From positions 26,102,001 to 26,166,000 of the forward strand of contig CAIIXF020000001.1 in assembly GCA_903813345.2 (NCBI GenBank): a DNA stretch of 64,000 nt, in the 5' to 3' direction. The notes beneath the pieces are model-generated. The model searched no databases. It saw nothing but the letters and a program-made list of their open reading frames with translations, and had not been told where the DNA came from. This DNA comes from Owenia fusiformis (Eukaryota). Positions 17,543 through 64,000 of the stretch are shown in pieces. The position numbers and the translations under genes are program-made. The first letter of the stretch is position 1. Every line of letters starts with the position of its first letter.

Positions 17543-18103
17543 ACTTGGTAGTGGTAAATGTGGTTAATTGCCGCTTGGTAGTGGTAAATGTGGTTAATTG
17601 CCGCTTGGTAGTGGTAAATGTGGTTAATTGCCGCTTGGTAGTGGTAAATGTGGTTAATTGCCGCTTGGTAGTGGTAAATGTGGTTAATTGCCGCTTGGTA
17701 GTGGTAAATGTGGTTAATTGCCGCTTGGTAGTGGCAAATGTGGTTAATTGCCGCTTGGTAGTGGTAAATGTGGTTAATTGCCGCTTGGTAGTGGTAAATG
17801 TGGTTGATTGCCACTTGGTAGTGGTAAATGTGGTTAATTGGCGCTTGGTAGTGGTAAATGTGGTTAATTGGCGCTTGGTAGTGGTAAATGTGGTTAATTG
17901 GCGCTTGGTAGTGGTAAATGTGGTTAATTGGCGCTTGGTAGTGGTAAATGTGGTTAATTGCCGCTTGGTAGTGGTAAATGTGGTTAATTGCCGCATGGTA
18001 GTGGTAAATGTGGTTAATTGGTGCTTGGTAGTGGTAAATGTGGTTAATTGGCGCTTGTTAGTGGTAAATTGCCGCTTGGTAGTGGTAAATGTGGTTAATT
18101 GGC
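17543..18103 (+). repeat. 30-bp minisatellite (TTGGTAGTGGTAAATGTGGTTAATTGSCGC), about 19 units
   Basis: Direct inspection. Confidence 0.97.
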
Positions 18104-36379: not shown

Positions 36380-37550
36380 TAAATAAAGAAACATGTAGGA
36401 AACATGTGGTGAAAAAGTGAAGAATATCTGAGAACATATTTTTTAGTTCTTCATTATTATTCAAATATCCTTCAAAGAAGTAGGTGAAAATAAGAAGAAT
36501 TTCCAAGATTACCAATAATTCAAAATGTTCTTTGTTATTCTTAAGATATTCTTCAAATAAGCTGGTGAAAAATTGAAGAATATCTAAGAACACATAAGTT
36601 CGTCATTATTATTCAAATATCCTTTAAATAACATGGTGAAAATATGAAGGATTTCCAAGATTACCAGTAGTACAAAATGTTCTTTATTATTCAACAAATA
36701 TTCTTCAAATAAGGTGGTGAAAAATTAAAGAATATCTAAGAACATAGAAGTTCTTCACTATTATTCAAATATCCTTTAAACAAGGTGGTGAAAATATGAA
36801 GAATTTTCAGGATATCGAACAATACAAAATGTTCTTTATTATTCTTCAGATATTCTTCAAATGAGGTGGTGAAAATGTGAAGAATATCTGAGAACATTGT
36901 AGTTCCTCATTATTATTCAAATATCCTTCAAACAAGTTAATGAAAATATAAAGAATCTCCAAGAATACCATAACTACAAAATGTTCTTCATAATTCTTCA
37001 AATATTCTTCAAATGAGGTAATGAAAAATTGAAGAATATCTAAGAACATAGAAGTTCTTCACTATTATTCAAATATCCTTTAAACAAGGTGGTGAAAATA
37101 TGAAGAATTTTCAGGATATCCAACAATACAAAATATTCTTTATTATTCTTCGAATATCCTTCAAATGAAGTGGTGAAAAAATGAAGAATATCTGAGAATA
37201 TTTTAGTTATTCATTATTATTCTCTCATTCCTTAAACAACATGGTGAAAATATGAAGAATTTCCAAGATTTCAAGAAATAGAAAATGTTATTCATTATTA
37301 TTCAAATATTCTTCATTCAGGGTGGTGAAAATATGAAGTATTTTGAAGAACATGAAACATTCTTTATTTTTCTTCAATTATTCACCATAGAATTTGAAGA
37401 ATATTCAAGAACATAAATTATTCTTTATTATTCTTCAAAAATACAAGAATATGGTTAAATCTTTATTCTTCACAATTTATCTCGATATTACAATATTCAT
37501 CACACCTGAATATTCATGAATAATTCATGAATATTCATATCACAAGAATA
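36380..37550. repeat. Right subterminal repeats of the CACTA element
   Basis: Recurring ggtggtgaaaa..tgaagaat...ttattattcaaatat units. Confidence 0.85.
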
Positions 37551-37898
37551 TCATTTCGCCGGGGTGAGTAAGTGAGTTCATTTTTCAAGTACACAAAGGA
37601 GGAGGGAAATTAGCGCAACAGATTTTGGACAGTCATATGTTGGATTCTGGCCATTTTCTGAGGATTTAAACAATAACATACGTTAGGCCAATGCATCACC
37701 TCCAGGAAAATCACTTCTATAGATGATAAAATAATTTCAACTTTGAGACAGGGTAGATGCAAACAACCCACCCAAATGTTTTTTCTGAAATGTTTTCCTG
37801 ATTTTCGACCCCTTCCATCCCTGCTTTTTGGCTCACACAGTGAGCCTATGGGATTGACCAGGCGTCCGTCCGTTGGTCCATCCGTCCGTTGGTCCGTC

Positions 37899-39897
37899 AT
37901 TGTTCAACTATAGTGAGATTACAGAAAGTATCGACGAAGGCAACAATACAGGAGAATGTGATTGTAATACATCTGAATTTAAGGATGAAGACCATGGTCA
38001 CGTCATAACAGGAAATCTGAAGATTATACAAAATTCAAAATTGAGAAAGCTATTTAGTAAAGGTCCTGGCTATAGAGAAAAACGAAACATTAACTTCAGG
38101 AAAGCAAAAGAAGAAATAAAGAAAGGAATAGATGAATATGCAATAAGTTGGACAAAAAATGAAAAAGTTTCAAAAGTATACTTAAATGAATGGAAAAATA
38201 CTGTAATGGAAAAGGTTAAACAAAAGATTGAGTTACTTCAAAATACAAAATTTAGACATATTAAAAATCCAAAGCAGACACTAAAGGACCATTATGCTAT
38301 GGAAGAACTCAATCAACTCAAGGAAAAATATGCCATTGTACCTATTGATAAGGCAGCAAATAATATTGGGTTTATGTGCAAACAATACTACATAAAGAAG
38401 ATTAAAGAGGAAATTGGGAGTGACACCTATCAAAGGATAGAAGATAAAGGAGAAGAAGATATAGTGGAGGAAATCAAAGAGACAATGAAAACAAAATTCA
38501 AGATTGAACCGGGAGAAGAACAAAATATTATACCAAGGATTCATCTTACAATTAAAATGCATAAACAGCCAATTAAATTTAGATATATCATTGGCTCAAA
38601 GAAAAGTTCTGTAAAACCAGCTGCCAAAAAACTGACCAAAATTCTTAAACTAGTGCAATATACTAACAAAAGATACTGTGAGAAGATTAAGGATTATACA
38701 GGTGCCAATAGGATGTGGATCAGTGACAATAACCAAAATATGTTAGATAATATTAAAAGTGTAAATTTAAGGAACGGGGCAAGAAACATAGCCTCGTATG
38801 ATTTCTCTACACTATACACAAAGATTAATCTAACTGACATAAAGGAAAAACTGAAATGGGTGATAGATAAAGCCTTCAGAGGAGGAACTAACCAAAAGAT
38901 AACAGTAGGTGGAGATGAAGCCAAATGGGGTGGAAAGGCGGATAATAAAAAGGCATATACCAAAGGAGAGTGCAATGATCTAGTGGATTTCATCGTGGAT
39001 ACAGCCTACTTTAAAGCAGGGAAATCAATTCTAAGACAGAAAATTGGAATACCGATGGGAATCGATCCGGCGCCATATATGGCAAACCTATACTTATACT
39101 GTTATGAATTTCAAGCCATTGAGAAAATGTATAGGGAAGACTACTCCAAAGTACTAAAATATGCTAAAACTACAAGATTTATCGATGATTTATGTACTAT
39201 AAACAACGACGGAGAAATGGAGACTGATATGAAGAACATCTATCCTGAAGAACTAGTGTTAAACAAGGAAAATGAGAAGGATACAGAAACAACTTTTCTG
39301 GACATACAAATGAAAATAGTAAATAAACAAATCACTACAAAACTATACGACAAAAGGGAAAACTTCAATTTCCAAATAGTCTCATATCCTGATCTATCTG
39401 GAAATATTCCTAGAAACCAATCTTATGGAATATTTATATCACAAATAATAAGGATTTCAAGAATTTGCAGTCAACTGGAAGATGCAACAAACAGAGTTAC
39501 CAACCTGGGAAATAAACTACAATGTCAAGGCTACAGGAGCAACATACTAAATTCGTATACTAAGAAAGCTATAACAAGAAATAAATGGATATGTACTAAA
39601 TACAATATGCAGGAGAATATCATCATGAAGGACTGGAAAATTAATGAGAGAAGAGAACATTAACAAATGAATATGAAACCGTATCTTCTCCGCAAAGAGG
39701 GTAAACTAAGATGACAAATCAGCATAAGACCAACAGTAAGGGGAAGGGGAGAGTTTTCCGGCCGGATCAAAACGTTTAACCCACCTATGCGCAGTCTCAA
39801 GTCTGTGGACCCTGAAGAAAGATAAGTAACATCGCAATCAAATCAAGACAAAGAAGAAGAAAATGAATGAAGAAACCAATGCAGCAACAACAAATGA
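37899..39897 (+). mobile_element. 5'-truncated Penelope-like retroelement (Naiad-like) inserted in a CCGT microsatellite
   Basis: 16-bp TSD CGTCCGTTGGTCCGTC (37883-37898 and 39898-39913); RT ORF plus a ~230-bp 3' tail. Confidence 0.8.
37900..39663 (+). CDS. Penelope-like reverse transcriptase, N-terminally truncated, no C-terminal GIY-YIG
   Basis: Open frame of about 587 codons with DKAANN, YDFSTLYT, GIPMG..AP..ANLYL, RFIDDL, FLD and YDKR motifs. Confidence 0.88.
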   Translation: MFNYSEITESIDEGNNTGECDCNTSEFKDEDHGHVITGNLKIIQNSKLRKLFSKGPGYREKRNINFRKAKEEIKKGIDEYAISWTKNEKVSKVYLNEWKNTVMEKVKQKIELLQNTKFRHIKNPKQTLKDHYAMEELNQLKEKYAIVPIDKAANNIGFMCKQYYIKKIKEEIGSDTYQRIEDKGEEDIVEEIKETMKTKFKIEPGEEQNIIPRIHLTIKMHKQPIKFRYIIGSKKSSVKPAAKKLTKILKLVQYTNKRYCEKIKDYTGANRMWISDNNQNMLDNIKSVNLRNGARNIASYDFSTLYTKINLTDIKEKLKWVIDKAFRGGTNQKITVGGDEAKWGGKADNKKAYTKGECNDLVDFIVDTAYFKAGKSILRQKIGIPMGIDPAPYMANLYLYCYEFQAIEKMYREDYSKVLKYAKTTRFIDDLCTINNDGEMETDMKNIYPEELVLNKENEKDTETTFLDIQMKIVNKQITTKLYDKRENFNFQIVSYPDLSGNIPRNQSYGIFISQIIRISRICSQLEDATNRVTNLGNKLQCQGYRSNILNSYTKKAITRNKWICTKYNMQENIIMKDWKINERREH

Positions 39898-43669: not shown

Positions 43670-46600
43670 TAGTAGATGGGTTAACTACATTTCGACTTCA
43701 TTGTATGATGCAAATGTCCCCTTTGGCATGAAAGTACCTTAGGGCAATAGAAATAAATTTATCCAAAGACACAAGCTAGATGACGCTTTATATTGGAAAT
43801 ATACACATTTTTCAAAATGGCCGCCAAAAATTCATCAGAGACAATATCTTTGATTCTGTACATGCTACAATTAAACGATTGGTGTCAAAAAATACAGCGA
43901 TGTAGTCGTAGAATCTATTTTATTAGATCTTGAGTCTTGAAAATTAAGAACTTCCACTTTATATTCAAAATATACGCGTTTTTCAAAATGACTGCCAGAA
44001 ATATAACAAAGAAGATATCTTGACTTACGAATACTTACAAATTAAGATATCTTACCTTACAAAATGTCCCCTTTGGCATTGACATACCTTAGGGCAATAG
44101 AAACAAATTTATCCAAAGACACAAGCTAGATGGCGCTTTATATTGGAAATATACACATTTTTCAAAATGGCCGCCAAAAATGCATCAGAGACAATAGTTT
44201 TGCTTCTGTGCATGCTACAATTATAAGAGAGGTGTCAAAAAATACATTAATGTAGTTGTAGAATCTATTTAATTAGGTTTCAAGTCTTGTAAATTCAGCA
44301 CTTGCACTTTATATTCAAAATATATGCATTTTTCAAAATGGATGCCAGAAATATAACAAAGAAGATATCTTCGCTTCTAAGCATCCTACAATGATAAGAG
44401 TGGTGTCAAAGTATACATAATATTGGGTTGTAGAATCCATTTAAATAGATCTTTCATAATAAGAATTTTCACTTTAAAGGAAATTATGCGCTTTTAAAAA
44501 TGGCCACCAGAAATATAACAATTATGATATCTTCAAATCAGTGCATGCTACACTGATACGATTGGTGTCAAAATTTTATATCTATGGGGTAGGAGAATCA
44601 ATTTTATTAAGTTTGGTGAGATTATAGTTTTCACTTTATATTGGAAATATATGCAGCTGAAAATATAACAAAGCTTGTATCTTTGCTAACAAAGATTGTA
44701 CCTTTGCTAACAAAGATTGTACCTTTGCTAACAAAGATTGTATCTTTGCTAACAAAAATTGTATCTTTGCTAAAAGTCTCTTTACTTCTGGGCATAATAT
44801 TTCATAAAATTGGCTTCAAAATCTACATTTTTGGGAATGTAAAATCTATTTAATTACGCAGATGCAAGTAGGTAGTTACTATTTTCCCCACCAGGTGGTT
44901 AATTCGGGTGAAATAACATTGCAGAGTATTACAAAGTTCCCTTAAACTTGAATATTATTTGGTGGTTCACATTTCATATTACTAGTTTGTATCTGATAGT
45001 TGTACAAACTAAAATATCTCCAGTTAAAGAAAATATTATTTGCACAACACAAGAAAAGATATTTCACTTTTTGTGTTTTACAACATGGGGACTATGGGGA
45101 ATCTCCCTGACCTAAATGTCACATTTTTGAAGAAAATTTAATTTTAAAGTTGATGGACTCATTTCAAAACCACATTTCTTGATGTCTTTTTTATGACGAT
45201 TCCAAATTCAACATCAGATAGACTGAATTTTGAATGACAAAAATAAAGATTGTTACTACTCGCATCTAGTAAATTGGATTATGAGCCTTAAAAATAATCG
45301 CTTTCGGCGTAACACAGCAAATGTGTATTTATCTTTCAATCTTCTTTTTACTCAAATTCACCAGAAAGACCAGTGTCTCTTTAATAACTTGCAATAAACA
45401 AGCATCTGCAATGGTAGTGCAACTTTAGTTGTTGCAATGCAACATACATAACAGAGAAATGTGATAGATAGAAACCACGCAGGACAGACATACATATGTA
45501 CATATAGTTAGAAAGGGCCAGAAACCTTCTGGCGAGAGAAAATCTTGAAGATCGAGATACATTTCAAGGGCTGCATATGATGACAGTAATGCAGAACCCT
45601 CTTCATCTCCTCTGACCAAATCATGGACGATGTCTATGTTTTCCGAGTCCTCCACTAATCCAACCAACAAACTATTAATCTTGTTGATTGGCAACCATTT
45701 TGAAAAAGACATGTATGTACACACATACAGCACTGAATATTGTCATATTGAGAAAAATATTCTTATTTTCTCATTTCAACATTTAAGAGATTAAAATTTT
45801 AAGATTTTAAACGGCAATGTGTCTTTCACCATGACTACTTCTACTATAAATACAGTGTTTATTATTAAAACAATGTCTTTTATTCCAAGTGAAGTCCCCA
45901 TGATTGTAAAATATGAATACAACTTTCTGGAAAATTATGGATTATTATTATATTATTGGCACTTTTTTAAAATGTTTAAGCTTATTTTGTAAAAAGATGA
46001 TCTTGTTTTTCTCAATTAAAACATATCAAAAGTTGTCTCACTTTATATCAACAATTACTTAAAAGTGGACGGTATTTGAAATGCACTGAAGTTGAAAACC
46101 ACATCCCCCATGCTATCCATTGTTTTCAGCATTGTTTCTGTCATGGCTAATTGATATTCAAACTACACTTTCGAACTATTCTACTTTTGAAGTTTAAGAG
46201 CCCTTGTTAGATCTATTTTTGTAATATTTTCCACAGCCATTGGAAAAAGGCATACATTTTCAATAAAAAGTGAAAATGTTAGATAACTAATAGACATACA
46301 GTACAATATCAGAATTTCCGCTGATTTAAACATTTTGGTGACCATTTAGTCAATGCTAAAAATTATATTTAGACAATAAAAAATTGAGATCTAACTTAAT
46401 ATAATGTAACCATACCTTGACGACATATCTAGGAAGTAATAGCTAATCAGCTCCTTCTCTGGGACATTTTGAATTTTCTGAGGCATTAATCATAAAATTA
46501 ACACCATCTTCAATTTAATTGAGTACATATGGCCATACTTTGAAGGATTCTGACAATAATTGCAAAATCATACATAAGATAAACAATGAACTGACAGACT

Positions 46601-47096: not shown

Positions 47097-47441
47097 ACAG
47101 CTTTTCTGAACATGCTGATGTACCCGAATGGTGTCTTATTCATAATGTGATAAATGAAATCATTGTGGTATGTATGTGGAGTCTATTTCCATTATAATAA
47201 TACATTTACTTTAGTACATGGATTCTCTCCTAATATTATTTCCTTATAAATATCCAAACTTTAATCAAAAGCAGTTTCAAAATTATCGTATATTGTATTT
47301 CACCTAAAATATCGTATATGGTATAAGAGCTGTGAAAAATATTGTATATGGTATAAAAGGGGTGAAAAAATATTGTATATGGTATAAGAGAGCTGAAAAA
47401 TATTGTATATGCATTTCCAAGACCCTCTATACACCCTCCCC

Positions 47442-49756
47442 ATTGGCGCTTGGTAGTGGTAAATGTGGTTAATTGCTGCTTGGTAGTGGTAAATGTGGTT
47501 AATTGGCGCTTGGTAGTGGTAAATGTGGTTAATTGGCGCTTGGTAGTGGTAAATGTGGTTAATTGGCACTTGGTAGTGGTAAATGTGGTTAATTACTGCT
47601 TGGTAGTGGTAAATGTGGTTATTTGGCGCTAGGTAGTGGTAAATGTGGTTAATTGGCGCTTGGTAGTGGTAAATGTTGTTAATTGCAGCTTGGTAGTGGT
47701 AAATGTGGTTAATTGCCGCTTGGTAGTGGTAAATGTGGTTAATTGGCGCTTGGTAGTGGTAAATGTGGTTAATTGGCGCTTGGTAGTGGTAAATGTGGTT
47801 AATTGGCGCTTGGTAGTGGTAAATGTGGTTAATTGCCGCTTGGTAGTGGTAAATGTGGTTAATTGCCGCTTGGTAGTGGTAAATGTGGTTAATTGCCGCT
47901 TGGTAGTGGTAAATGTGGTTAATTGCCGCTTGGTAGTGGTAAATGTGGTTAATTTGTGCTTGGTAGTGGTAAATGTGGTTAATTGGCGCTTTGTAGTGGT
48001 AAATGTGGTTAATTGCCGCTTGGTAGTGGTAAATGTGGTTAATTGACGCTTGTTAGTGGTAAATGTGGTTAATTGACGCTTGGTAGTGGTAAATGTGGTT
48101 AATTGCCGCTTGGTAGTGGTAAATGTGGTTAATTGCCGCTTGGTAGTGGTAAATGTGGTTAATTGGCGCTTGGTAGTGGTAAATGTGGTTAATTGGCGCT
48201 TGGTAGTGGTAAATGTGGTTAATTGGCGCTTGGTAGTGGTAAATGTGGTTAATTGCCGCTTGGTAGTGGTAAATGTGGTTAATTGCCGCTTGGTAGTGGT
48301 AAATATGGTTAATTGGCGCTTGGTAGTGGTAAATGTGGTTAATTGGTGCTTGGTAGTGGTAAATGTGGTTAATTGGTGCTTGGTAGTGGTAAATGTGGTT
48401 AATTGGCGCTTGGTAGTGGTAAATGTGGTTAATTGGCGCTTGGTAGTGGTAAATGTGGTTAATTGCCGCTTGGTAGTGGTAAATGTGGTTAAATGACGCT
48501 TGTTAGTGGTAAATGTGGTTAATTGACGCTTGGTAGTGGTAAATGTGGTTAATTGCCGCTTGGTAGTGGTAAATGTGGTTAATTGCCGCTTGGTAGTGGT
48601 AAATGTGGTTAATTGGCGCTTGGTAGTGGTAAATGTGGTTAATTGGCGCTTGGTAGTGGTAAATGTGGTTAATTGCCGCTTGGTAGTGGTAAATATGGTT
48701 AATTGGCGCTTGGTAGTGGTAAATGTGGTTAATTGGCGCTTGGTAGTGGTAAATGTGGTTAATTGGCGCTTGGTAGTGGTAAATGTGGTTAATTGCCGCT
48801 TGGTAGTGGTAAATGTGGTTAATTGCCGCTTGGTAGTGGTAAATGTGGTTAATTGCCGCTTGGTAGTGGTAAATGTGGTTAATTGCCGCTTGGTAGTGGT
48901 AATTGTGGTTAATTGCCGCTTGGTAGTGGTAAATGTGGTTAATTGCCGCTTGGTAGTGGTAAATGTGGTTAATTGCCGCTTGGTAGTGGTAAATGTGGTT
49001 AAATGACGCTTGTTAGTGGTAAATGTGGTTAATTGACGCTTGGTAGTGGTAAATGCGGTTAATTGCCGCTTGGTAGTGGTAAATGTGGTTAATTGCCGCT
49101 TGGTAGTGGTAAATGTGGTTAATTGGCGCTTGGTAGTGGTAAATGTGGTTAATTGGCGCTTGGTAGTGGTAAATGTGGTTAATTGGCGCTTGGTAGTGGT
49201 AAATGTGGTTAATTGGCGCTTGGTAGTGGTAAATGTGGTTAATTGACGCTTGGTAGTGGTAAATATGGTTAATTGGCGCTTGGTAGTGGTAAATGTGGTT
49301 AATTGGCGCTTGGTAGTGGTAAATGTGGTTAATTGGCGCTTGGTAGTGGTAAATGTGGTTAATTGGCGATTGGTAGTGGTAAATGTGGTTAATTGCCGCT
49401 TGGTAGTGGTAAATGTGGTTAATTGCCGCTTGGTAGTGGTAAATGTGGTTAATTGCCGCTTGGTAGTGGTAAATGTGGTTAATTGGCGCTTGGTAGTGGT
49501 AAATGTGGTTAATTGGTGCTTGGTAGTGGTAAATGTGGTTAATTGGCGCTTGGTAGTGGTAAATGTGGTTAATTGCCGCTTGGTAGTGGTAAATGTGGTT
49601 AATTGCCGCGTGGTAGTGGTAAATGTGGTTAATTGCCGCGTGGTAGTGGTAAATGTGGTTAATTGCCGCTTGGTAGTGGTAAATGTGGTTAATTGCAGCT
49701 TGGTAGTGGTAAATGTGGTTAATTGCCTGGTAGTGGTAAATGTGGTTAATTGGCGC
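47442..49756 (+). repeat. 30-bp minisatellite, about 77 units, same unit and orientation as 17543-18103
   Basis: Direct inspection. Confidence 0.97.
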
Positions 49757-49758
49757 CT

Positions 49759-49823
49759 AGGTTAGGGTTAAGTTAGGGTTAATTATGGTTAGGTTGAGGG
49801 AGGTGGAAAATGCTAGGGTTAGG
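49759..49823 (+). repeat. Short degenerate TTAGGG-like tract
   Basis: aggttagggttaagttagggttaattatggttagg...tagggttagg. Confidence 0.7.
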
Positions 49824-49850
49824 TAACATTATGCGACATAATAACAAAAA

Positions 49851-52150
49851 ATGGCTACATGTCTCATTTGCACTGGTGAGCTTGGGGAGGGACAAGTTAT
49901 GATTTGTAAGGCGTGCGTTGATGTAGTAAGTCTTCCTTTTCCTTCAAAATCTGATAACCAAACTAAATAAAGTATTGTTTATATGATATTTAAAAATCTA
50001 ATATACTTTTTATGTTAAAGCTTGGACTTATTCTTATTATGTATTTAAATAATTGTTGTTTTGATCCTTTCAGATTGAGGAAAAGCGTAAGGAAAAGATG
50101 AAACATAGTAATATTCTCTTATTAATTTATTTTTGTGTGGAAGAACTTTCTAAATGAATGGATTCTTGTTGTAAATTTCAAATATTTCAGTTAATGTAAT
50201 CTGTACATATTTTAGGACTTATGCTGAAGTGGTGTCTCCTCCAGCTATTGAACTCTGCGGGGATATCATTGCCTGTGTGCAGAAGTAAGTTTAATATTTA
50301 TGCTTCTGAATCAAATTCAATTTACTTAACCCCCTATACCTCGGTTTGAGGCCATTTAGTCATCCTCCTGTCAAAATACCATAATTTTTGCCTTCATATT
50401 AAAACAGCATTTTAGTAATTTCAGATCCGTGGGCAAGTCGTCTGAATCCTTCAGTATTGCACCTGTTTATGTTATGTTTTAATTTACAACCATTTAATAT
50501 CAGAAATCTTTCTGATATAAATGTGTTGACAAAATTGCAAACATCACAATGAAACTCCATTCTGTTTTTTAGAATTAAATACTCAATCCAATTACAGTAC
50601 ATTCTTTTTCTTTACTATATTTTTGAAAAAAATAACCACTTATATAAATTACACCACTGACTTCTATGTTCAAAACTATTTTGATGCATAATACAATTAG
50701 TATTTTGCAATATTGCCCTCATGCATAGCATTATTAAGAAAATTTTAAATTCTGTACTTAGGACGTCTGAGGAGATAGTCCAGGAGGTTGCAGAGGTGGC
50801 TGCAGAGAAGTGGGAGGATGGGAAGCCAGGGACCAGCCAAAGTCCCACTCATGGGTCCTTCAGGTATAAAAAGGTAATAATTAACTGTCAATAGAGAATT
50901 TATTGATATATATTGTTTTACAAATTTAAGCTTATAATATACTTATACAAGGGCCGATCAAAAAGTTCCTTACCATTATGACATATGTGAAGAGCCAATA
51001 TCTCTCGATAAATAATAAGAAATAAAATAAATAAAAATAACATCTAATAATATTTTGATGCATAATACAATTAGTATTTTGCAACATTGCCCCTAAGCAT
51101 AGTATTATTGACAAAATTTTAAATTCTGTACTTAGGACATCTGAGGAGATAGTCGATGAGGCTGCAGAGGAGGCTGCAGAAGAGGGAGGATGGGAGGCCA
51201 GGGACCAGCCAAAGTCCCACTCATGGGTCTTTTAGGTATAAGAAGGTGATAATTAACTGTCAATAGAGAATTTATCGATATATGTTGTCAATTAAATATC
51301 TATTTAAATTATAGAAGGAAAAGAAATCTACCTTAAGGTAGATGTTGTTCTGAAAGAAAGGCAGCAAAATGCAGTGTTCAAGACACGTAATTCAGTGTTG
51401 ACTGTGAGCTCGCAAGGTGTAGTCAAGTAAGTTTTAAGATAAACCAACAAGTATTTTTAGACAATTCTTTCATGGTCTTGTAGCCTAAGTAACCTTCATT
51501 TTTAAGCCTTTTTCCATTACTGAGAATAAGAAATCTTATTTTGTACTAAGGTAAAGTGATTTACCAATGTAACTATATTCATGAATCTTTTCGGCTTGAA
51601 AAGTGTGTCACAGATATAGAAAACAATGTATTTAAATACAACCTTGAAGACATTGAGTTTTCCCAACATCGAGTCCATAAGAAGTTGGTCTACAGGGTGG
51701 GCAAATAAATTGGAACATGGCTCCTGTTTTAATTGATGGAAATTGTGTTGAGACCATTTGAAGGTTACATATTGTATTGTATGTAAGATATTGTATTTTC
51801 AGCAGTGATGTCTCTACCTGAGAAAATTTGGAATTCTTTCATGAAATACATGTACGTTGTACTTTTTTATTGACCCATCCTGTATATATTAAACGAGAAA
51901 AAAAAATATTTGTGTAGCACCTGGTAATAGTTCAAAAATGAGGATTGAATACTCTATGGTTGTCCAATATGGATGCATGTATTCCTGCTTGTTTTATCAA
52001 CCCTTTTATTTTACAAATTCAACTTAAGAATTTACACATTTTTTAGATTGCTTGCCATGAAAGTAATGCATAGAGTGTATTGTTTTGATCTGGATTTACC
52101 AGCAGTTGAGGTTCTTAGTATTATAGAAAGTGTCGCTTTGAAGAAAAAAG
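49851..52150 (+). other. Exon series of an unidentified, probably TE-borne gene
   Basis: GT-AG flanked exon-like blocks: MATCLICTGELGEGQVMICKACVDV (CxxC..CxxC), TYAEVVSPP.., duplicated TSEEIV..GTSQSPTHG exons, ..AVFKTRNSVLTVS.. A complete frame was not resolved. Confidence 0.45.
51693..51882. mobile_element. Tc1/mariner-type MITE
   Basis: TA-CAGGGTGGG...CCCATCCTG-TA. Confidence 0.65.
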
Positions 52151-53112
52151 TGAGTTAAATTCAGTTCTTTTCAAATAAATTGATTGTTTTTACTTATTAT
52201 TTTATGGCATAGTATAATAAAACTGATAATATTGATACCCCTTCAATATAGAGCTGTTGAATGTGTCTATATATCTACTCACAATTCTGATCTAATGCTA
52301 TTTTTGGGTTTTACAGTTTGTCTTTGAGCTATAATCTCGATCATGACATGCTAGTTATATGTGGCTAAATGCTTCTGGTAATGTAATTTACTTCTGAGAT
52401 CAAAAGTTTAACCGAGCCCATGTAAATTTAATTTGAAGATATGCTCAGAAAACTGAGCATATCTCCCTTAGTGAGTAAAATATAGTAAAAAAAATGTTTA
52501 GTTTTATTACATTTTATAAAGGTGCACTCCTGTTATTGTCTCTAAAAAAGCAACTTTTTGTTTTAGTTTTTAACCTTTAAACAGTCAGGGGGAGGCTTAT
52601 ACTCTGAGGGTTAATGCATAATAAGAATGACCTTTAAAACATGATTTAGTTCTTCAACTCAAATGAATTTCTGAAATTTTGGAATTGATGGATGGCAAAT
52701 GTAATCCCAAGATGAAAATAACATTCATAATCAAAGATATAAGCATCTTAAATTAGTTTGAGCAACCTATATGTCCTTTCTCTACTATGTACAGTATTTG
52801 TTTCATTTTTATATAATATTTACTCGGCGTGCATCTCACCACAGTGTTTGTTATGTTTGACTTCATATGATGTTTTGGAAGGAGCCTCATAGAAAAATCA
52901 CAAACTTTCTCTCTTATCCAAGGATTGTCTATAAATTAGAACTTAATGGAGAATTGGATTTATGATAAAATACCTCACTTCATTTTATGGGATATGGGAT
53001 CTAAACAATAACAACTATACCATGTATATATCAAAAATAAAAAATACGAGGCACTTTAAGTTTGTGATTGAATAGAATTTAGCAGTAGTTAGCTAAACTG
53101 TAAAATCTACAG

Positions 53113-54959
53113 AGTGCCAAAACAGATTCAAGTGTCAAAAAAGAAGGAAGCATACCTGCCCAACATGTTTGAATAAATATAGGGACTTTCCTAAACATTT
53201 AAGACAAATACATTTTAAAGATCCAAATTACAAAATTCCCCAAATCTTTAAATCAACATTTTTTCATGAACATTCCAGAAAAAGGAGAGTGCCAAATCAA
53301 GCAAGACAATATAAATATAAAGAATGTAAAAAATGTGGGAAAAACATCCAAAGACTGGACAAACATTTAAAAACATGTGAAACATCTGTACCAAAGAAAT
53401 CAAAATTCAAGACTACAAGTTATTTGTCAAGCAAAATAGACTATGGCGTAATACTATGGTCGCCCTGTCTAAAAAGAGAGAGCTTGAAAATCAAGCAAAT
53501 AGTGGAGAAAATCTCCCGACAAAACAAGACATTAAGGACTTCCATTGTTCGGCTTATGTAAAAAAACGAAGAATTAATCGACCAAGAAAAATTGAAAGTA
53601 GTGATATGTATCACCTGTGAAACTACTTGATGACAATTATCTGCATCTCAAATGCATGCCTGGTGGGACCAATCATGAATCTCGAATGTAGGCATGTCAA
53701 ACAAGCAGACAAAATTGGACGTTATGTTAACCATGTAAGTATTACTGCAAATTAATCATGCAAGCTTCAGTAAACCATTTAGGAAATCGAATTGGAATTA
53801 CTCCTTTTTCCATGTAGTATTTACTGACTGTTTTATGGGGGTTTTGAGACTGACAGATTTTCATGTTGTACTGGGGATTGAATGTAGAATTTACTGAGTG
53901 TTTTATAGGGAATTTGAGAATGTCACTCTTTGATGTTGTAATGGGGATTGAATGAAATATTAACTGATTGTTTTACAGGGGAGAGGTTACAGTTGTATCA
54001 CCAATTCCTGCTTTTGTGTACCAAAGAAATCAAAATTCAAGACTATGAGTTATTTGTCAAGCAAAATAGACTATGTCGTAATACTATGGTCGCCCTGTCT
54101 AAAGAGAGAGCTTGAAAATCAAGCAAATAGTGCAGAAAATCTCCCGACAAAACAAGACATTAAAGACTTCCATTGTTCGGCTTATGTAAAAAAAACGAAG
54201 AATTAATCGACCAAGAAAAATTGAAAGTAGTGATATGTATCACCTGCGAAACTACTTGATGACAATTATCTGCATCTCAAATGCATTCCTGGTGGGACCA
54301 ATCATGAATCTCGAATGTAGGCATGTCAAACAAGCAGACAAAATTGGATGTTATGTTTACCATGTAAGTCTTATTGCAAATTAATCATGCAAGCTTCAGT
54401 AAACTATTTAGTATTTACTGACTGTTTTATGGGGGTTTTGAGACTGACAGATTTTCATGTTGTACTGGGGATTGAATGTAGAATTTACTGAGTGTTTTAT
54501 AGGGAATTTGAGACTGTCACTCTTTGATGTTGTAATGGGGATTGAATGAAGTATTAACTGATTGTTTTACACGGGAGAGGTTACAGTTGTATCACCAATT
54601 CCTGCTTTTGTGTACCAAAGAAATCAAAATTCAAGACTAAGAGTTATTTGTCAAGCAAAATAGACTATGGCATTATACTATGGTCACCCTGTCTAAAAAG
54701 AGAGAGCTTGAAAATCAAGCAAATAGTGCAGAAAATCTCCCGACAAAACAAGACATTAAAGACTTCCATTGTTCGGCTTATGTAAAAAAACGAAGAATTA
54801 ATCGACCAAGAAAAAATTGAAAGTAGTGATATGTGTCGCCTGCGAAACTACTTGATGACAATTATCTGCATCTCAAATGCATGCTGGGTGGGACCAATTA
54901 TGAATCTCGAATGCAGGCATGTCAAACAAGCACACAGAATTGGACGTTATGTCTACCAT
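53113..54959 (+). pseudogene. Degraded zinc-finger / tyrosine-recombinase-like exon with internal deletion; 3' part triplicated in ~600-bp units
   Basis: CPTC..H..H and CKKC..RLDKH, then three copies of QNRLW..ENLPTKQD..NYLMTIICISNA(C/F)(L/W)VGPIMNLECRHV with stops and frameshifts; paralogous to 59014-59924. Confidence 0.75.
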
Positions 54960-55040
54960 GTAAGTATTATTGCAAATTAATCATGCAAGCTTCAGTAAAC
55001 CATTTAGGAAATCGAATTGGAATAACTCCTTTTTCCATGT

Positions 55041-55830
55041 AGTATTTACTGACTGTTTCATGGGGGTTTTGAGACTGACAGATTTTCATGTTGTACTGGG
55101 GATTGAATGTAGAATTTACTGAGTGTCTTATAGGGGATTTGAGACTGTCACTCTTTGATGTTGTAATGGGGATTGAATGAAGTATTAACTGATTGTTTTA
55201 CAGGGGATTTGAGACTGACACTCTTTGATGTTGTACTGGGGATTGAATGTAGTATTTACTGAGTGTTTTAAAGGGGATTTAAGACTGACACTCTCTGATG
55301 TTGCACTGGGGATTAAATATAGTATTTACTGAGTGTTTTATAGGGGATTTGAGACTGACACTCTTTGATGTTGCACTTGGGATTGAATGTAGTATTTACT
55401 GAGTGTTTTATAGGGGATTTGAGACTGTCACTCTTTGATGTTGTACTGGGGATTGGATGTAGTATTTACTGACTGTTTTATAGGGGATTTGAGACTGACA
55501 CACTTTGATGTTGCACTGGGGATTAAATATAGTATTTACTGAGTGTTTTATAGGGGATTTGAGACTGTCACTCTTTGATGTTGTACTGGGGATTGGATGT
55601 AGTATTTACTGACTGTTTTATAGGGGATTTGAGACTGACACACTTTGATGTTGCACTGGGGATTAAATATAGTATTTACTGAGTGTTTTATAGGGGATTT
55701 GAGACTGACACTCTTTGATGTTGTACTGGGGATTGGATGTAGTATTTACTGACTGTTTTATAGGGGATTTGAGACTGACACACTTTGATGTTGCACTGGG
55801 GATCGAATGTAGTATTTACTGACACACTTT
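55041..55830 (+). repeat. 70-bp minisatellite, about 11-12 units
   Basis: agtatttact recurs every 70 bp (55251, 55321, 55391...). Confidence 0.95.
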
Positions 55831-56924
55831 GATAATGTTCTGATGAAACAATAAATAAGTGAAAATCACTGTGATACAAATAATAAATCCAGTATTTTAT
55901 TACCACTCTGCAATTTATCTCAATGAATCTGGTCCATGTAGGATTAATTATATCAATATCCTCTCTTTAAATCAATGTAAGGCGAAGCAAGAGCATGATT
56001 AAGAAACCAGTGTAATAAAAAAATGACCCCCTTCCTTACCTAAGCTATGTTGACAATTGCCTTTATCAACAGCCTGTTTCATTATATGTACATTTTTTGA
56101 TTGTATTTAGACAATTCTATTTTTTTTTGACTCATAAGCATGACAATGATGACATATGTGAAGAGCCAACACCTCTGGATAAATAATAATAAAAGTATAA
56201 AATAAATAATAATGGCCTCTAATTTAAACAACACCATTGACTCCTATGTTCAAAACTATTTTGATGCATGATACGATTATTATTTTGCAATATTACCCTC
56301 TTGCATAGTATTATTGACAAAATTTATAATTTTGTACTTAGGACATCTGAGGAGATAGTCGATGAGGCTGCAGAAGAAGGAGGATGGGAGGCCTGGGAGC
56401 AGCCAAAGTCCCACTCATGGGTCCTTCAGGTATAAGAAGGTAATAATGTTCGAGTAGGAGGAGCCCATATCTCTGGAGGTTCTGGAGCCTGTAGCTGCTG
56501 CAGTAGATGAGGTAGGAGTCAATCCACCACATGACTAGAAATTCCTTTAGTGTGCACCCTTATAAAAAACTACCATTTTCTCCCAAATTAAATTGTTACA
56601 TTGAATATCATGTAACCGTCCAACATTTCAACAATGAAGATCAAAGGAAACATCATTACTTCAAACATTAATGAATAGTACCATGGGTAATGGGCTCACA
56701 TTGTGTTGCTCAAGAGTGAATCATGGCTAAAATGGCAGAGAATAAAAAAAATGGATGTAATTTTTGCATATTTTTTGTTACAAAACTATTTCATACAACT
56801 ACTCTTTACAGTGTCATGACTTTTTACAATGCAGGACACCTTAATTTGATTATTTGTAAAGCTAGACAATAATATATAGTTATATCTAGCGCCAAAAATG
56901 AATAAACCCTATTCTCTTGAATTA

Positions 56925-57444
56925 CTGTACTCCAGGTATTGTTTGCGTGAGATTTGATTTCTCTTTGTTCGCGAATGTAGTAAAATCACCAACATTTATC
57001 GTCGAAAATTTGTCTTTTAAATCCCCAGGGATTTTACCCGTGACTTTTGATATGTTTCTTTCGGTGTAAAACGTCTCATCCAGTGTTGTTGGGCGATAAT
57101 TCTAAAAAGGCCTAAAATGTCTAACATTTTGAACATTTTGAATAGGCTTATTAGGCCAACAAAGGCAAGAACTGTTGATGACAATGACATCCTACAAATT
57201 GAAGTTGAAAAAGCCATTCAAGAATATTCAAATAAATGCCCTAAACATGGGAAATACAAACATTATTCGGATTTTGAACGGGCTAATAGCCAGATACGCA
57301 TTGATTCACGGTTATAAGAAAACAATTCAAGTTGTGCAATCTGCGAAATGTCATCAACTCAAATCCGCGAAATTAAATAGCTAGGAAATTGCAATTTTGA
57401 AAAATCGCGAAATTTTATAGCGTCGAAATTTACCAGGAGTACAG
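56925..57444. mobile_element. Tc1/mariner-type MITE
   Basis: TA-CTGTACTCC...GGAGTACAG-TA. Confidence 0.6.
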
Positions 57445-59013
57445 TATATAGAAAACAATATGCCTATGAACGTGAGCTCCAATATTCTTATTGTTGTTAT
57501 GATATGTAGAAAGTTTCATGCTTCGTTCCATGAATGAACTGTTTCCTGCTTTTTTGCATTATTTCTCTCACTATTAGACACTATGTTTTTTCAGAACCCC
57601 TTTGATATTGAGCAAGGGGTGTGCAGGAGCTGCAAAAGGTACCACCTGGAGACAGAGGTGTGTACCATGCTAATAACTGTTTTATCATGCCTTATAGAAA
57701 TGCATATGCATCTTAGTAATGGTATTCACATTTCCAAATTATCATTTAATATTGTTATCTTCATTCATTTTTAAGAAAGCTTTGGTACTTGCTCGTTCAA
57801 TGTAACCTTTGGAGGGACTTTTGGATCATTAGTTTGGATTTGTCTCTTTTTTAAATCATGTGAGTTAAAGTCCTTTTTTGTTAGACCAAATGTTATTATA
57901 TTGTTTTATTTTTATTTGACATGTACACATGTACCTGAGGCCCCAGCTTCTAGACCAGCCACAAGACCAGCCCAACCAGCATCCAGACCAGCCCCTAAAC
58001 CAGCCCGACCAGCCAGACCAGCCCATATACCAACCCCAATACCAGCCCTTATACCGGTACCAGCCCCAAACACGGTGGAGATCTGCGAGGTGCGATTCCT
58101 CGAGTCCATCCTTGTGTCAGGTACATATTAGACTTATTGTTAGTGTAAACAAACCATCAAAAGTGGTGACATATTGTTATAGCCTTCAACATGGATGATG
58201 GTTGTGTAGTTAATTGATCCGCTTTTGGCTTCTGTAATAAATTCTTACAAAATGGAGACCATAACAAATGGTGTTATTTGTACACAATTTCCAACAAATG
58301 GTATTTGTCTGTAGCAAACATTTTTACAAATGTTGCCTGTAACAAAATCTTACAAATTGCATCTGCAACAAGTTCTTATTATAGAGGGACAAGAACATGT
58401 CGCCATTGACAATGTGATGGCAGATCGAGAGGCAAAGGCTGTGTTCAAGACCCGGAATTCGGTCTTGACTGTCAGTTGCTGGTGTAATAAAGTATGTATT
58501 TACCATAAACCAAGCAATATTTTATATATTTAAAATATAAGGCTAATTTGGAGGAGTTGGTGTGTATAATGTTAACCCTAGATAATTGTTATAGTTGGTT
58601 TTGATTGATTTTAGAAATGTGACCCACTAATGAATTTGACAAAACTACAGATTTATTTTAAAATTCATTTTACAGACTGAAGAGAACGATTGTTAGATAA
58701 GAATAACAAGCTTGATATGAATAATTTATGTATTTCAAGATCCCCTTTAAAATTGGAAGATTTTATTCAGATTTTACCCCATTATCATAATCATAGGCTT
58801 TCAACTAGTTGAAAACCCATGTCATAATCAAATAAACAATAAAGAGTAAATGTTGTACTGAAATCATGAACTAAACATTCATTTAACATTCAGTTTAACA
58901 TGATATAGTATCAATTGAATTTTACTTAGATTTACATGTAGGCATATCAGAAACGTTAATTGAATCAAATGAAATTTTGCAGTAGTTAGCTTGTGTCAAC
59001 TTAATATTTTCAG

Positions 59014-59924
59014 AGCCAACACAGAAGAGAAGAAAACACACATGTCCGACATGCTTTAAAAAGATCAGGTATCTCAAAAAGCATTTCGAGCAGACTCACA
59101 TGAAGGACCCCAAATGCAAGATTCCTGAAAATTACAAAAATGATTTTGCACATGAGTATACGAAGCAAAGGAAAACATCTGGGAATGTTCGGAAATACCA
59201 GTACAAACAATGCCAATCTTGTGGCAAAAGTGTTCAAAGGTTGGACAAACACAAATGTAAAAAGGATGTCACAATTGAATCAGCCACAAACAATTTCAAT
59301 GAGAACCTTAACATGTTTGTCAAAAAGCTCATCTCACCATCAGGAGGTAATAAAAGTGAAGAAAGTGCCAACGTGACGAGCTGCGCAAAATGTTCGGTAC
59401 ATTGAAGACCTTCACGCTGGAGTTGGAGGATATAATCCTTTGGACTCAAACCTTCTGAATGAGAAATTTATAGAGCCCGCCTTGAGTGGAAAATTTCCAC
59501 AAATCAAGCAAGCGTCGACCATTAAGTCATATTTAGAAAGCCTGCAAACTTGCCACCAGTACCTTCTATTATGCAAAAATCCATAGATTTTGCGCAATTT
59601 GAACTATTCAAAAAACAGAATAGACTATGGTGTAATTCTATGAATGTTAGGTCTGAGAAGCGGAAACTTGAAAACCAGTCCAATGATGCCGAAAACTTAC
59701 CGACCAAAGATGATATTGTGAAATATTATGGTTCACAGTATGTCAAAGACACAAAATCTCTCTTTGGCAAAGCTAAAGTCAATATCAAAGAAATGTATGT
59801 AATGAGGAATTACATCATGACCGTTATATGCATTTCTAACGCCTGCCGTGCAGGACCTATAGTAAACTTGGAGTGCAGGCATGTTCGTGTCGCTGACAGG
59901 GTTGGAGACTGCTATGTTTACCAT
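59014..59924 (+). pseudogene. Zinc-finger plus tyrosine-recombinase-like exon (Crypton-like), at least 2 frameshifts
   Basis: CPTC..HFEQTH, CQSC..RLDKHKC, F..KLISPSGGNKS, STIKSYLESL (core-binding-domain-like), RNYIMTVICISNACRAGPIVNL (box-I Arg-like); ends at a GTGAGT donor; frameshifts near 59370 and 59580. Confidence 0.7.
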
Positions 59925-59954
59925 GTGAGTATACTGCACAATGATACAGCATAG

Positions 59955-62745
59955 CGAGAATGGTAATAGTTGGGTTTTATACAAGACTAGAGAGAATGGT
60001 AATAGATGGGCTTGATACAAGACGAGAGAGAATGGTAATAGATGGGTTTGATGTAAGCCTAGAGAGAATGGTAATAGTTGGGTTTTACACAAGACGCGAG
60101 AGAATGGTAATAGATGGGTTTGATACAAGACGAGAGAGAATGGTAATAGATGGGTTTGATGTAAGACAAGAGAGAATGGTAATAGATGGGTTTGATGTAA
60201 GACTAGAGAGAATAGTAATAGATGGGTTTGATGTAAGACTAGAGAGAATGGTAATAGATGGGTTTGATGTAAGCTTAGACAGAATGGTAATAGATGGGTT
60301 TGATACAAGACGAGAGAGAATGGTAATAGATGGGTTTGATGTAAGACTAGAGAGAATGGTAATAGATGGGTTTGATGTAAGCTTAGACAGAATGGTAATA
60401 GATGGGTTTGATACAATATGATAGAGAATGGTAATAGATGGGTTTGATACAAGACCAGAGAGAATGGTAATAGATGGGTTTGATGTAAGACTAGAGAGAA
60501 TGGTAATAGATGGGTTTGATGTAAGCTTAGAGAGAATGGTAATAGATGGGTTTGATACAAGACGAGAGAGAATGGTAATAGATGGGTTTGATGTAAGGCT
60601 AGAGAGAATGGTAATAGATGGGTTTGATGTAAGACTAGAGAGAATGGTAATAGATGGGTTTTATGTAAGCCTAGAGAGAATGGTCATAGATGGGTTTGAT
60701 GTAAGACTAGAGAGAATGGTAATAGATGGGTTTGATGTAAGCTTAGACAGAATGGTAATAGATGGGTTTGATACAATATGATAGAGAATGGTAATAGATG
60801 GGTTTGATACAAGACCAGAGAGAATGGTAATAGATGGGTTTGATGTAAGACTAGAGAGAATGGTAATAGATGGGTTTGATGTAAGCCTAATGGTAATAGA
60901 TGGGTTTGATACAAGACGAGAGAGAGAATGGTAATAGATAGGTTTGATGTAAGACTAGAGAGAATGGTAATAGATGGGTTTGATGTAAGCTTAGACAGAA
61001 TGGTAATAGATGGGTTTGATACAATATGATAGAGAATGGTAATAGATGGGTTTGATACAAGACCAGAGAGAATGGTAATAGATGGGTTTGATGTAAGACT
61101 AGAGAGAATGGTAATAGATGGGTTTGATGTAAGCCTAATGGTAATAGATGGGTTTGATACAAGACGAGAGAGAGAATGGTAATAGATGGGTTTTATGTAA
61201 GCCTAGAGAGAATGGTAATAGATGGGTTTGATACAAGACGAGAGAGAATGGTCATAGATGGGTTTGATGTAAGACTAGAGAGAATGGTAATAGATGGGTT
61301 TGATGTAAGGCTAGAGAGAATGGTAATAGATGGGTTTTATGTAAGCCTAGAGAGAATGGTAATAGATGGGTTTGATACAAGACGAGAAAGAATGGTAATA
61401 GATGGGTTTGATGTAAGACTAGAGAGAATGGTAATAGATGGGTTTGATACAATATGATAGAGAATGGTAATAGATGGGTTTGATACAAGACCAGAGAGAA
61501 TGGTAATAGATGGGTTTGATGTAAGACTAGAGAGAATGGTCATAGATGGGTTTGATGTAAGACTAGAGAGAATGGTAATAGATGGGTTTGATGTAAGGCT
61601 AGAGAGAATGGTAATAGATGGGTTTTATGTAAGCCTAGAGAGAATGGTAATAGATGGGTTTGATACAAGACGAGAGAGAATGGTAATAGATGGGTTTGAT
61701 GTAAGACTAGAGAGAATGGTAATAGATGGGTTTGATGTAAGCTTAGAGAGAATGGTAATAGATGGGTTTGATACAAGATGAGAGAGAATGGTAATAGATG
61801 GGTTTGATGTAAGACTAGAGAGAATGGTAATAGATGGGTTTGATACAAGACGAGAGAGAATGGTCATAGATGGGTTTGATGTAAGACTAGAGAGAATGGT
61901 AATAGATGGGTTTGATGTAAGGCTAGAGAGAATGGTAATAGATGGGTTTTATGTAAGCCTAGAGAGAATGGTAATAGATGGGTTTGATACAAGACGAGAG
62001 AGAATGGTAATAGATGGGTTTGATACAAGACGAGAGAGAATGGTCATAGATGGGTTTGATGTAAGACTAGAGAGAATGGTAATAGATGGGTTTGATGTAA
62101 GGCTAGAGAGAATGGTAATAGATGGGTTTTATGTAAGCCTAGAGAGAATGGTAATAGATGGGTTTGATACAAGACGAGAGAGAATGGTAATAGATGGGTT
62201 TGATGTAAGACTAGAGAGAATGGTAATAGATGGGTTTGATGTAAGCTTAGAGAGAATGGTAATAGATGGGTTTGATACAAGATGAGAGAGAATGGTAATA
62301 GATGGGTTTTATGTAAGCCTAGAGAGAATGGTAATAGATGGGTTTGATACAAGACGAGAGAGAATGGTCATAGATGGGTTTGATGTAAGACTAGAGAGAA
62401 TGGTAATAGATGGGTTTGATGTAAGCTTAGAGAGAATGGTAATAGATGGGTTTGATACAAGATGAGAGAGAATGGTAATAGATGGGTTTGATGTAAGACT
62501 AGAGAGAATGGTAATAGATGGGTTTGATGTAAGACAAGAGAGAATGGTAATAGATGGGTTTGATGTAAGACTAGAGAGAATAGTAATAGATGGGTTTGAT
62601 GTAAGACTAGAGAGAATGGTAATAGATGGGTTTGATGTAAGCTTAGACAGAATGGTAATAGATGGGTTTGATACAAGATGAGAGAGAATGGTAATAGATG
62701 GGTTTGATACAAGACGAGAGAGAATGGTAATAGATGGGTTTGATA
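59955..62745 (+). repeat. 36-bp minisatellite (AGAGAATGGTAATAGATGGGTTTGATGTAAGACTAG), about 77 units
   Basis: Direct inspection; several recurring unit variants. Confidence 0.97.
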
Positions 62746-64000
62746 TGGATCCTTGAAACGTTTTTTTCTCGCCACACCCCTTCCCTTCGGACAGGCTTGG
62801 ATTTTGAGCTCGGATGGGGCGATGTGTTGGTTTGCACAAGCCCCACAAACTCTCTCTATACCCATGCTGCATATGGTTGGGGGTTATATTTCAGTAGTTG
62901 AGGTGGCTCGCTTTACAAACCCCTCTTGTACAAGCTAAGGAGTGTCTGATGTCCACACAACATTACCATTTTGGTGCACCTTTATTGATCCTTAAGCTAC
63001 TGTAGCCTCCTCCGAGGCCACCTCTGTATTCTAGAGACTTGAGTTACTGTAAAGTAGTGCTCTCCCCCCATTAGAATCACCGAGGCACAACATCTAAAGC
63101 ACTAAAATGCTCCTCTATTCAATTGCAGGTGCAGTGAGGCAATTGTTTCTACCAAGGAGGCAAATGTTTTCAATGAGGCAAATATCATTGTTGAGGCAAG
63201 GCTGCAAGGGGGGTGCAGCAAAACCTGTAGGGAGCCCTCGTGTTACGGCCATGTCCCATTTGATCATGGAGATATGCTTTTATGATTTCAGTGATTTCTA
63301 CAGGATTGTTTCTCAAGTGGGTGCAAAATTCTCAAAATATGTCATTTTTTCATAATTTTTCTCATTTTCAAGTGGGTGCAAATCACTTTTCAGGTGGGTG
63401 CAAGCCTTTTTTCAAAATCTCAAGTGGGTGCTGCACCCACTTGCTTTAATACTGGGGAGAACACTCTATTTGATGGAACTATCAGCTGTGTTTTCAGTCT
63501 TTTTTATTTTATGGGTAGGGGTGAGTTAAGATTAGAGTATCCTCCCTTTCTTCAAGCCAATCTTCCTATTTTAATTAAATCTAGGAGATCATTTCTTCAT
63601 CATCCTCGGTAAGACACTCTTTATGGAATGAGTTGGAATTTTTACCGAAACAATGTGGAAGAAACTACAGCAGTAAAAGACAACCTGTTGACAAGAAGGC
63701 TGACACTGCACGCAGAGAGGCTGCTACATGGATTTTACTGCCCTTTGTGGCTTCTGCCCATTGTGCAATGACAGTAAGTACATGTATTGAAGCCACTTCT
63801 TTTCTGCACTGATTTGTTGCTGTTGTTCTGTTTATTGATTTCAGCTTGAAATTATAATGGAAGATAACAAAAATACATCCTTATTTTCAAGAATAAAATA
63901 AGCTACCATATGTACTTTGTAGATGTCTAGCAAAACATGCTCATGTCATATATAACATGGGACGGTTACAAGGAATAATGATAGTATGCAGTGATCTCCC

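Follow-up and report, generated by a model that had tools for sequence, protein, structure and literature searches.

The stretch analysed here comprises 64,000 nucleotides from the annelid Owenia fusiformis (assembly GCA_903813345.2, contig CAIIXF020000001.1, positions 26,102,001 to 26,166,000 of the forward strand); it is referred to as the window, and all positions are counted from its first letter. It contains two units arranged in tandem on the plus strand, A (about 49.8-55.8 kb) and B (about 56.1-62.7 kb), which are probably anciently diverged paralogues representing the front halves of a zinc-finger tyrosine-recombinase gene, left behind as pseudogenes or as transposon remnants. Judged by sequence, what the locus is predicted to encode runs from the zinc fingers through the core-binding domain into the catalytic domain, of which it covers the first helix and strands. 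The window copies are catalytically dead; rather than a large mobile element in intact form, they are debris of a transposon or a gene family. “Remnants” is the best current description because every copy carries lesions, the catalytic half is missing and RNA is absent.

The link between the window peptide and tyrosine recombinases rests on sequence homology, detected with phmmer and with a profile hidden Markov model (HMM). The 142-amino-acid (aa) piece encoded at 59526-59954 matched 35 proteins at E ≤ 1e-3 in a phmmer search of 1.84 billion representatives (best E 2.1e-9, none at ≤ 1e-10); a word-based protein search with the same piece gave no homologue at longer lengths and none at 78-249 aa. 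The proteins of this family are about 650-850 aa long (the long hits of the search about 640-830 aa) and are found in cnidarians, a crinoid and an annelid, with named members from Nematostella, Actinostola, Dendronephthya, Paramuricea, the crinoid Anneissia and the annelid Owenia. Their shared layout starts with two N-terminal CCHH-type fingers (CPxxC...HLxRHxxxxH), which an acidic low-complexity linker connects to a core-binding domain, followed by a catalytic domain. The long members contain a helical domain with the motif PGTxKxYLxSL, followed by NAxRxGxxANM ... HKT ... SFRKA ... LMxHxxxTAxxxY; the order in the catalytic domain is R...K...(T/A)xxR...H...Y, and all long members (14 of 14) carry R504, K534 and R615. 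One member bears the source label “Core-binding (CB) domain-containing protein”, while “site-specific recombinase XerD” is the label given to two others, and the nearest named Atlas clusters carry Phage_integrase. Among 29 members, Pfam SAM_4 is found in 10 and SAM_1 in six.

The fold of the family was examined on an AlphaFold AF2 model of a full-length relative, P0004, not on the window peptide. This model is confident over the fingers and over residues 300-640; across these residues the predicted local distance difference test score (pLDDT) is mostly above 90 with short dips. The model also has a C-terminal helical domain. A Foldseek search with P0004 returned 18 matches at E ≤ 0.001, and all matches listed are tyrosine recombinases, in the order XerA (E 3e-5), Cre, XerH, Tn1549 Int and lambda Int, with a probability of 1.00 over about 370 columns. 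VIA-align gave a Z score of 14.5 for XerH (root-mean-square deviation 5.6, 295 residues) and 14.0 for Cre (5.7, 287 residues), and comparison with Cre, XerH, XerA and lambda Int yielded Z scores of 13-15 over both domains. Because the model matches recombinase structures over both domains, the family is a zinc-finger-bearing tyrosine recombinase with a predicted two-domain Cre/Xer/Int fold. The 142-aa piece itself, modelled with 34 sequences, reached a mean pLDDT of 78 and showed the order of helices and strands seen in P0004 residues 411-530. An earlier note, made from the letters of this DNA, had proposed that the open reading frame (ORF) is related to tyrosine recombinases, and the phmmer matches, the profile match described below and the two-domain fold of P0004 bear this out.

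In the window the recombinase ORF is present as four pieces, all on the plus strand. Copy B (58986-59951) is read through three frame pieces (58986-59405, 59377-59586 and 59526-59954) and contains two fingers, the core-binding domain (ASTIKSYLESL), RNYIMTVICISNACRAGPIVNL and box I, NACRAGPIVNL, with its Arg; it ends in DCYVYH, followed by GTGAGT. Its frame path runs from 0 to +1 and back to 0 through two frameshifts, near 59371-59405 and 59565-59586, and it is free of internal stops. Copy A1 (53097-53752), which also has two fingers and ends in ...VNH followed by GTAAGT, carries a frameshift after finger 2, has lost most of the core-binding helices and contains an in-frame TGA at 53618-53620. 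Copies A2 (54017-54381, 93% identical to A1) and A3 (54611-54977, 95% identical to A1) are partial tandem duplicates with a period of about 600 bp, each ending in YVYH followed by GTAAGT. The box-I Arg is replaced by Leu in A1 (NACLVGP) and A2 (NAFLVGP) and by Trp in A3 (NACWVGP), although the flanks ICISNA...GPI.NLECRHV are retained in all three. All four pieces break off at one common point, a few codons before the catalytic Lys, and in every copy a stop codon lies within 7-10 codons of this common end. Beyond the last His codon the likeness between A and B continues for only about 18 nt, with a score that was reached by 19 of 500 shuffles, and the ORF ends are followed by unrelated satellites, a 70-bp array after A and a 36-bp array after B.

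Relatives read through the truncation point unbroken, as ...HVKKHKT or ...TVSNHKT. In intact members elsewhere the ORF is uninterrupted: one of 669 aa fits within a contig of 2353 bp, another of 736 aa within 2463 bp. Contigs as short as the former leave no room for a reverse transcriptase beside the ORF. For the window, all 1503 six-frame ORFs were searched with a profile HMM that was built from 29 family proteins and spans 646 positions. It matched 59526-59951 (E 2.1e-34, profile positions 241-357) and 59377-59583 (E 2.1e-7, positions 168-233), as well as pieces of unit A (E 2.6e-12, 1.9e-10, 1.9e-8 and 6.6e-6), while the finger ORFs gave marginal scores only, at positions 14-65. Together the matches extend from position 14 to position 357 of the 646 in the profile and so cover only the front half of the protein, and no coding sequence past position 357 was found among the 1503 ORFs at E < 4. 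A tblastn search with 55 family proteins against the window agrees with this result, and neither method found a family match in 62745-64000. From the catalytic set R-K-H-R-H/W-Y, the first Arg alone is encoded, in copy B only, and coding sequence for the K, second R, H or Y is found nowhere in the window. The profile HMM and tblastn searches therefore confirm what the earlier note had read from the letters, namely that the copies are frameshifted and that the catalytic exons (K, HxxR and Y) are absent from the window.

Upstream of the ORFs, the two units share further pieces on the plus strand. Block X, recovered by masked self-BLAST of the window, is an ag/gt-bounded exon-like piece (TSEEIVQEVAE...SQSPTHGSFR) that occurs twice in unit A, at 50627-50881 and, 91% identical, at 50972-51253, and once in unit B, at 56143-56447 (83% identical to the first copy); identities across its three copies range from 76 to 91%. 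Block Y (AVFKTRNSVLTVS) lies at 51367-51457 in unit A and at 58434-58523 in unit B, with 78% identity between the two. A putative first exon, read from the sequence, is located at 49843-49927 (plus strand), where an ATG opens MATCLICTGELGEGQVMICKACVDV, with a CxxC-x11-CxxC pattern, and is followed by gtaagt. Unit B additionally has a proline/alanine-rich exon-like ORF at 57930-58125 (plus strand, APASRPATRPAQPASRPAPKPARPARPAH...) on a degenerate 12-bp repeat, which has no counterpart in unit A. A Pfam scan of the 45 non-satellite ORFs of 49.8-64 kb found neither a reverse transcriptase nor any other domain: eight window ORFs gave sub-threshold noise only, with no match to Phage_integrase (PF00589), and 37 further ORFs nothing relevant.

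Transcription and copy number were assessed for unit B by placing three RNA runs and one DNA run with the same species label on 55850-59950. RNA depth is 0 to 1.4 on every putative exon of unit B, including 59001-59950, in three of three runs, and in these runs, sampled at 6-12%, we saw neither splice joints on 55850-59950 nor loose ends at 59925. The multi-exon gene of the earlier note, in which the small upstream pieces would be joined to the zinc-finger ORF in one mRNA, found no confirmation in these runs. DNA depth reaches 8-10 over 59412-59685, compared with a baseline of about 1.1, and all reads there depart from the window by one shared set of changes, which suggests that this genome has roughly 6-9 additional copies at identities of at least 85%; the family would therefore be low-copy, not single-copy. 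Unit B is also interrupted by a high-copy interspersed repeat at 56670-57630, identified by DNA read depth, which is uneven (about 1250 in the peak bin 56672-56808 and about 1 in bin 57220-57356, against the same baseline). A second such repeat, at 58153-58190, has a DNA depth of about 210 in its bin. RNA reads pile up on both repeats abundantly at 85-95% likeness, which shows that copies of these repeats elsewhere in the genome are transcribed.

In other animals, near-identical copies of the recombinase family are dispersed. Three Nematostella loci on three different chromosome-scale contigs fall within one 90% cluster, one family cluster has 12 members on many contigs, and 57 relatives of P0004, for the most part from octocorals, fall into clusters with as many as 24 members. 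Searches of metagenome contigs for relatives of P0003 and P0045 gave pattern matches only, and no relatives of P0004 or P0023 were found in viral contigs.

Over 182 aligned codons, A and B are 60% identical at the DNA level, with 65%, 78% and 36% identity at codon positions 1, 2 and 3, respectively, and the ratio of nonsynonymous to synonymous differences (pN/pS) is 0.28 in frame, compared with about 1.2 in two shifted-frame controls. The count of synonymous sites is crude (pS exceeds 1 in one block), but the pattern by codon position is robust. It follows that protein-level selection acted on A and B while they diverged, up to the saturation of their synonymous sites. The excess of third-position differences implies descent from lineages that were long under selection, so A and B are not one dead fragment duplicated in place.

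This history is the first of several results that weigh against the interpretation of A and B as simply decayed remnants of a tyrosine recombinase. Despite their saturation, the units end at one common point, have no ATG in frame ahead of finger 1, and share an AG just upstream (at about 53110 and 59013) and GTRAGT directly after the last His codon (...YV(Y/N)H), the last in four of four pieces; this combination would likewise be compatible with a conserved exon belonging to a gene that lost its function only recently. The RNA, sampled at 6-12% and placed on unit B only, is weak evidence of silence, and for B alone. Further points concern the recombinase assignment, for which the links by sequence alone are weak. 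Nine of the 29 members matched Phage_integrase, none of them reaching the gathering score (best E 1e-5; scores among the matches listed are at most 25 bits, with a cut-off of 27.1 bits), and the family is not captured above threshold by current Pfam models. Searched against PDB sequences, the family profile found no recombinase and gave a low-complexity match to RPB4 only (E 0.23). The 142-aa piece folded alone had no Foldseek match at E ≤ 10, and its best VIA Z score, 4.8, was to unrelated helical proteins.

Three readings fit these observations. First, two long-lived lineages of an element whose gene has an intron at this point may have given rise to A and B by insertion or duplication, the downstream part being lost or out of view. 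Second, B may be the front of a live intron-containing gene. Third, a short protein consisting of the fingers and the core-binding domain may itself have been functional.

In its full form, the second reading makes unit B the 5' portion of a recombinase gene that is live and has introns, in which the ORF is an internal exon, the catalytic exons lie past the 36-bp array and the window end, and the frameshifts are assembly errors. The exon-like features just described speak for it: neither ORF has its own ATG, an AG acceptor lies just upstream of each, and CAT followed by GTRAGT is retained throughout. Blocks X and Y precede both ORFs in the same order, the codon-position pattern indicates long purifying selection, and B keeps the box-I Arg without an internal stop. 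On the other side, B requires two separate frame changes, no family match lies between 62745 and 64000, and the three RNA runs show a depth of 0 to 1.4 without joints or loose ends at 59925. Moreover, the space left in unit A ahead of unit B is too small for catalytic exons, and GTGAGT and GTAAGT could be old Val-Lys/Ser codons, as relatives read through this point. We regard a live gene as quite improbable.

The third reading, in which A and B come from a domesticated and naturally short family that encoded a non-catalytic DNA-binding protein of two fingers and a core-binding domain, resembling solo ALOG, and that decayed only recently here, appears doubtful to a similar degree. It draws on the common end point of A and B in spite of saturated synonymous sites, on the stop within 7-10 codons of this end in every copy, and on the loss of the catalytic Arg from all three A copies while its flanks were kept. 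A precedent exists in the solo ALOG domains of Nematostella and plants, according to passages of PMC3537659. Against it stand the frame-breaking lesions in both copies, the lack of RNA over B and the lack of any window-like protein ending at this point (no matches at 78-249 aa), and selection could equally have acted on full-length ancestors. A bolder version holds that A and B are relics of a lineage-specific domesticated DNA-binding family, an animal counterpart of plant ALOG, and that the parent family is perhaps an unnamed Crypton-like superfamily. Domestication of this kind would explain both the shared truncation point and the strong protein-level constraint on the saturated paralogues; we consider this version unlikely. 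The interpretation as remnants is retained below.

Among known systems, the family shares with Cre, XerC/D/H, XerA and lambda Int the two-domain fold seen in the P0004 model, the conserved Arg, Lys and second Arg, and a C-terminal H...Y. It differs from them in its low sequence identity (about 12-16%), in its two extra N-terminal zinc fingers, long acidic linker and C-terminal helical domain, and in having T or A in place of the His of HxxR in the family consensus; the window copies, in addition, end before the catalytic Lys. An intact member would cut and rejoin DNA through a 3'-phosphotyrosine link, by analogy with Cre and Xer. The window copies are incapable of this, as they end before the catalytic Lys, lack the K, second Arg, His and Tyr, and carry frameshifts.

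By its architecture the family is Crypton-like. As in Cryptons, an animal recombinase ORF stands without a reverse transcriptase beside it, and it is multi-copy and dispersed in cnidarians. CryptonA recombinases match DUF3504 (Kojima and Jurka 2011, PMC3212892), whereas none of the 29 family members does so at E up to 10, a search in which HMMER filters drop many matches weaker than E 0.1; by this test the family is not of the DUF3504/CryptonA type. Zinc fingers are not mentioned for animal Cryptons in section 8 and 12 of the 23 matching passages of PMC3212892. Truncated and intronized derivatives of CryptonA have been reported in fungi, and Cryptons are described as excised circles that then integrate site-specifically at short microhomology (PMC13465315). 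On this published model, an element of the present family would move as an excised circle and integrate by site-specific recombination.

DIRS/Ngaro elements and ALOG-type proteins offer a second comparison: passages of PMC3537659 describe Xer-like recombinases with decayed copies in marine invertebrates and core-binding domains that can survive alone, including solo ALOG domains derived from DIRS-type recombinases in Nematostella and plants. Unlike DIRS/Ngaro, the region from 49.8 to 64 kb has no ORF for a reverse transcriptase, RNase H or methyltransferase among the 45 scanned. A 601-aa ORF without a Pfam match (see below) lies 13 kb from the recombinase region. The ALOG proteins differ in that their zinc ribbon lies inside the core-binding domain, as those same passages describe it (PMC3537659), whereas the fingers of the present family are separate and N-terminal. 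No ALOG match was found among the first 25 of the 51 Pfam families listed for family members. No account of an animal recombinase family with zinc fingers turned up in a literature search, which covered neither Repbase entries nor the supplements to PMC3212892.

The earlier note had suggested a large tyrosine-recombinase element whose left end may be a 30-bp array at 17.5 kb. Taken in full, this model is one very large element that reaches from there past 62.7 kb and in which the minisatellites and the telomere-like repeats would be structural components. The individual features that the note listed are confirmed: the 30-bp array, the TTAGGG-like tract (a tiny one), the CxxC exon that opens with ATG, and ORF pieces with two fingers, STIKSYLESL and RNYIMTVICISNACRAGPIVNL are all present in the sequence. 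The 30-bp minisatellite at 47442-49756 (77.3 copies, 96% matches) indeed has the same unit as an array at 17539-18101 (19.1 copies), both called with Tandem Repeats Finder, which was run over the window, and the ATG exon begins only 87 bp past the second of these arrays. The element itself is not supported. The 29 kb between the arrays contain a Transposase_21 ORF, a BEN-domain ORF, the 601-aa ORF and several unrelated tandem repeats, and neither tblastn nor the profile HMM found a recombinase-family match there. The recombinase copies are broken and without a catalytic domain, and the 30-, 36- and 70-bp units are mutually unrelated. Furthermore, both arrays carry a second 30-bp repeat with the core GTATATGGTATAAGAG (47306-47411, 3.5 copies; also at 18125-18232), which borders the inner side of each array in like orientation, as expected of a split satellite block. 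One old composite satellite block divided by about 29 kb of later insertions therefore fits better than element termini, and we consider a very large element highly improbable. The 30-bp arrays and the TTAGGG-like scrap would then be neighbouring satellite DNA rather than element ends.

Within this interval, at 32646-35763 (plus strand), two open frames lie in a row, one of 296 aa with CxxC motifs and one of 608 aa with a Transposase_21 (tnp2) domain (33937-35763; Pfam E 1.5e-15, above the cut-off); together they look like a fairly intact gene of a CACTA/tnp2-type DNA transposon. A 148-aa BEN-domain ORF is located on the minus strand at 21260-21706 (Pfam E 7.5e-11, above the cut-off). The 601-aa ORF at 37858-39663 (plus strand) is uninterrupted and lysine-rich and has no Pfam match at E up to 5; its ...FIDDL... 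motif may resemble those of reverse transcriptases.

The window as a whole is AT-rich (about 30-41% GC), repeat-laden, animal-type DNA, and the region is unusually rich in satellites. The TTAGGG-like tract at 49760-49800 (plus strand) is short and degenerate, consisting of two adjoining GGTTAGGGTTA-like units and debris; Tandem Repeats Finder described it at 49761-49800 with a period of 11, 3.6 copies and a score of 50. Two adjoining matches to GGTTAGGGTTA with at most one mismatch were found, compared with a chance mean of 0.92, and two or more occurred in 24 of 100 shuffles. The 70-bp minisatellite (53812-55822) forms short runs at 53812-53980 and 54409-54569 that alternate with copies A2 and A3, followed by an 11.2-copy array at 55037-55822; minisatellite growth has probably since multiplied the 3' part of copy A into a higher-order repeat of 600 bp. 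The 36-bp minisatellite (59952-62744, 77.8 copies, 89% matches) sets in about 25 nt past the end of the copy B homology. A common origin of the two downstream satellites was considered and dropped, as the 30-, 36- and 70-bp units align pairwise no better than shuffles.

Elsewhere in the window, long-period tandem repeats are found at 19218-20618 (301 bp, 4.7 copies), 36406-37353 (152/304 bp, 6.2 copies) and 43712-44371 (350 bp, 1.9 copies). A pair of 798-bp direct repeats lies at 5750-6534 and 8414-9211, 98% identical and spaced 2.7 kb apart. Each holds a 13-bp microsatellite (6229-6387 and 8893-9064), and a 148-aa ORF lies between them at 6748-7194; the arrangement resembles a small element flanked by its long terminal repeats.

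As it stands, the locus is debris in a repeat region and changes little. The family to which it belongs abounds in cnidarians, also occurs in a crinoid and an annelid, and is widespread in marine invertebrates; through a census of these zinc-finger recombinases, the eukaryotic tyrosine-recombinase elements, so far a short list, could gain a lineage. The shared truncation point, together with the signature of purifying selection, is a small hint that the DNA-binding half of a recombinase can persist alone.

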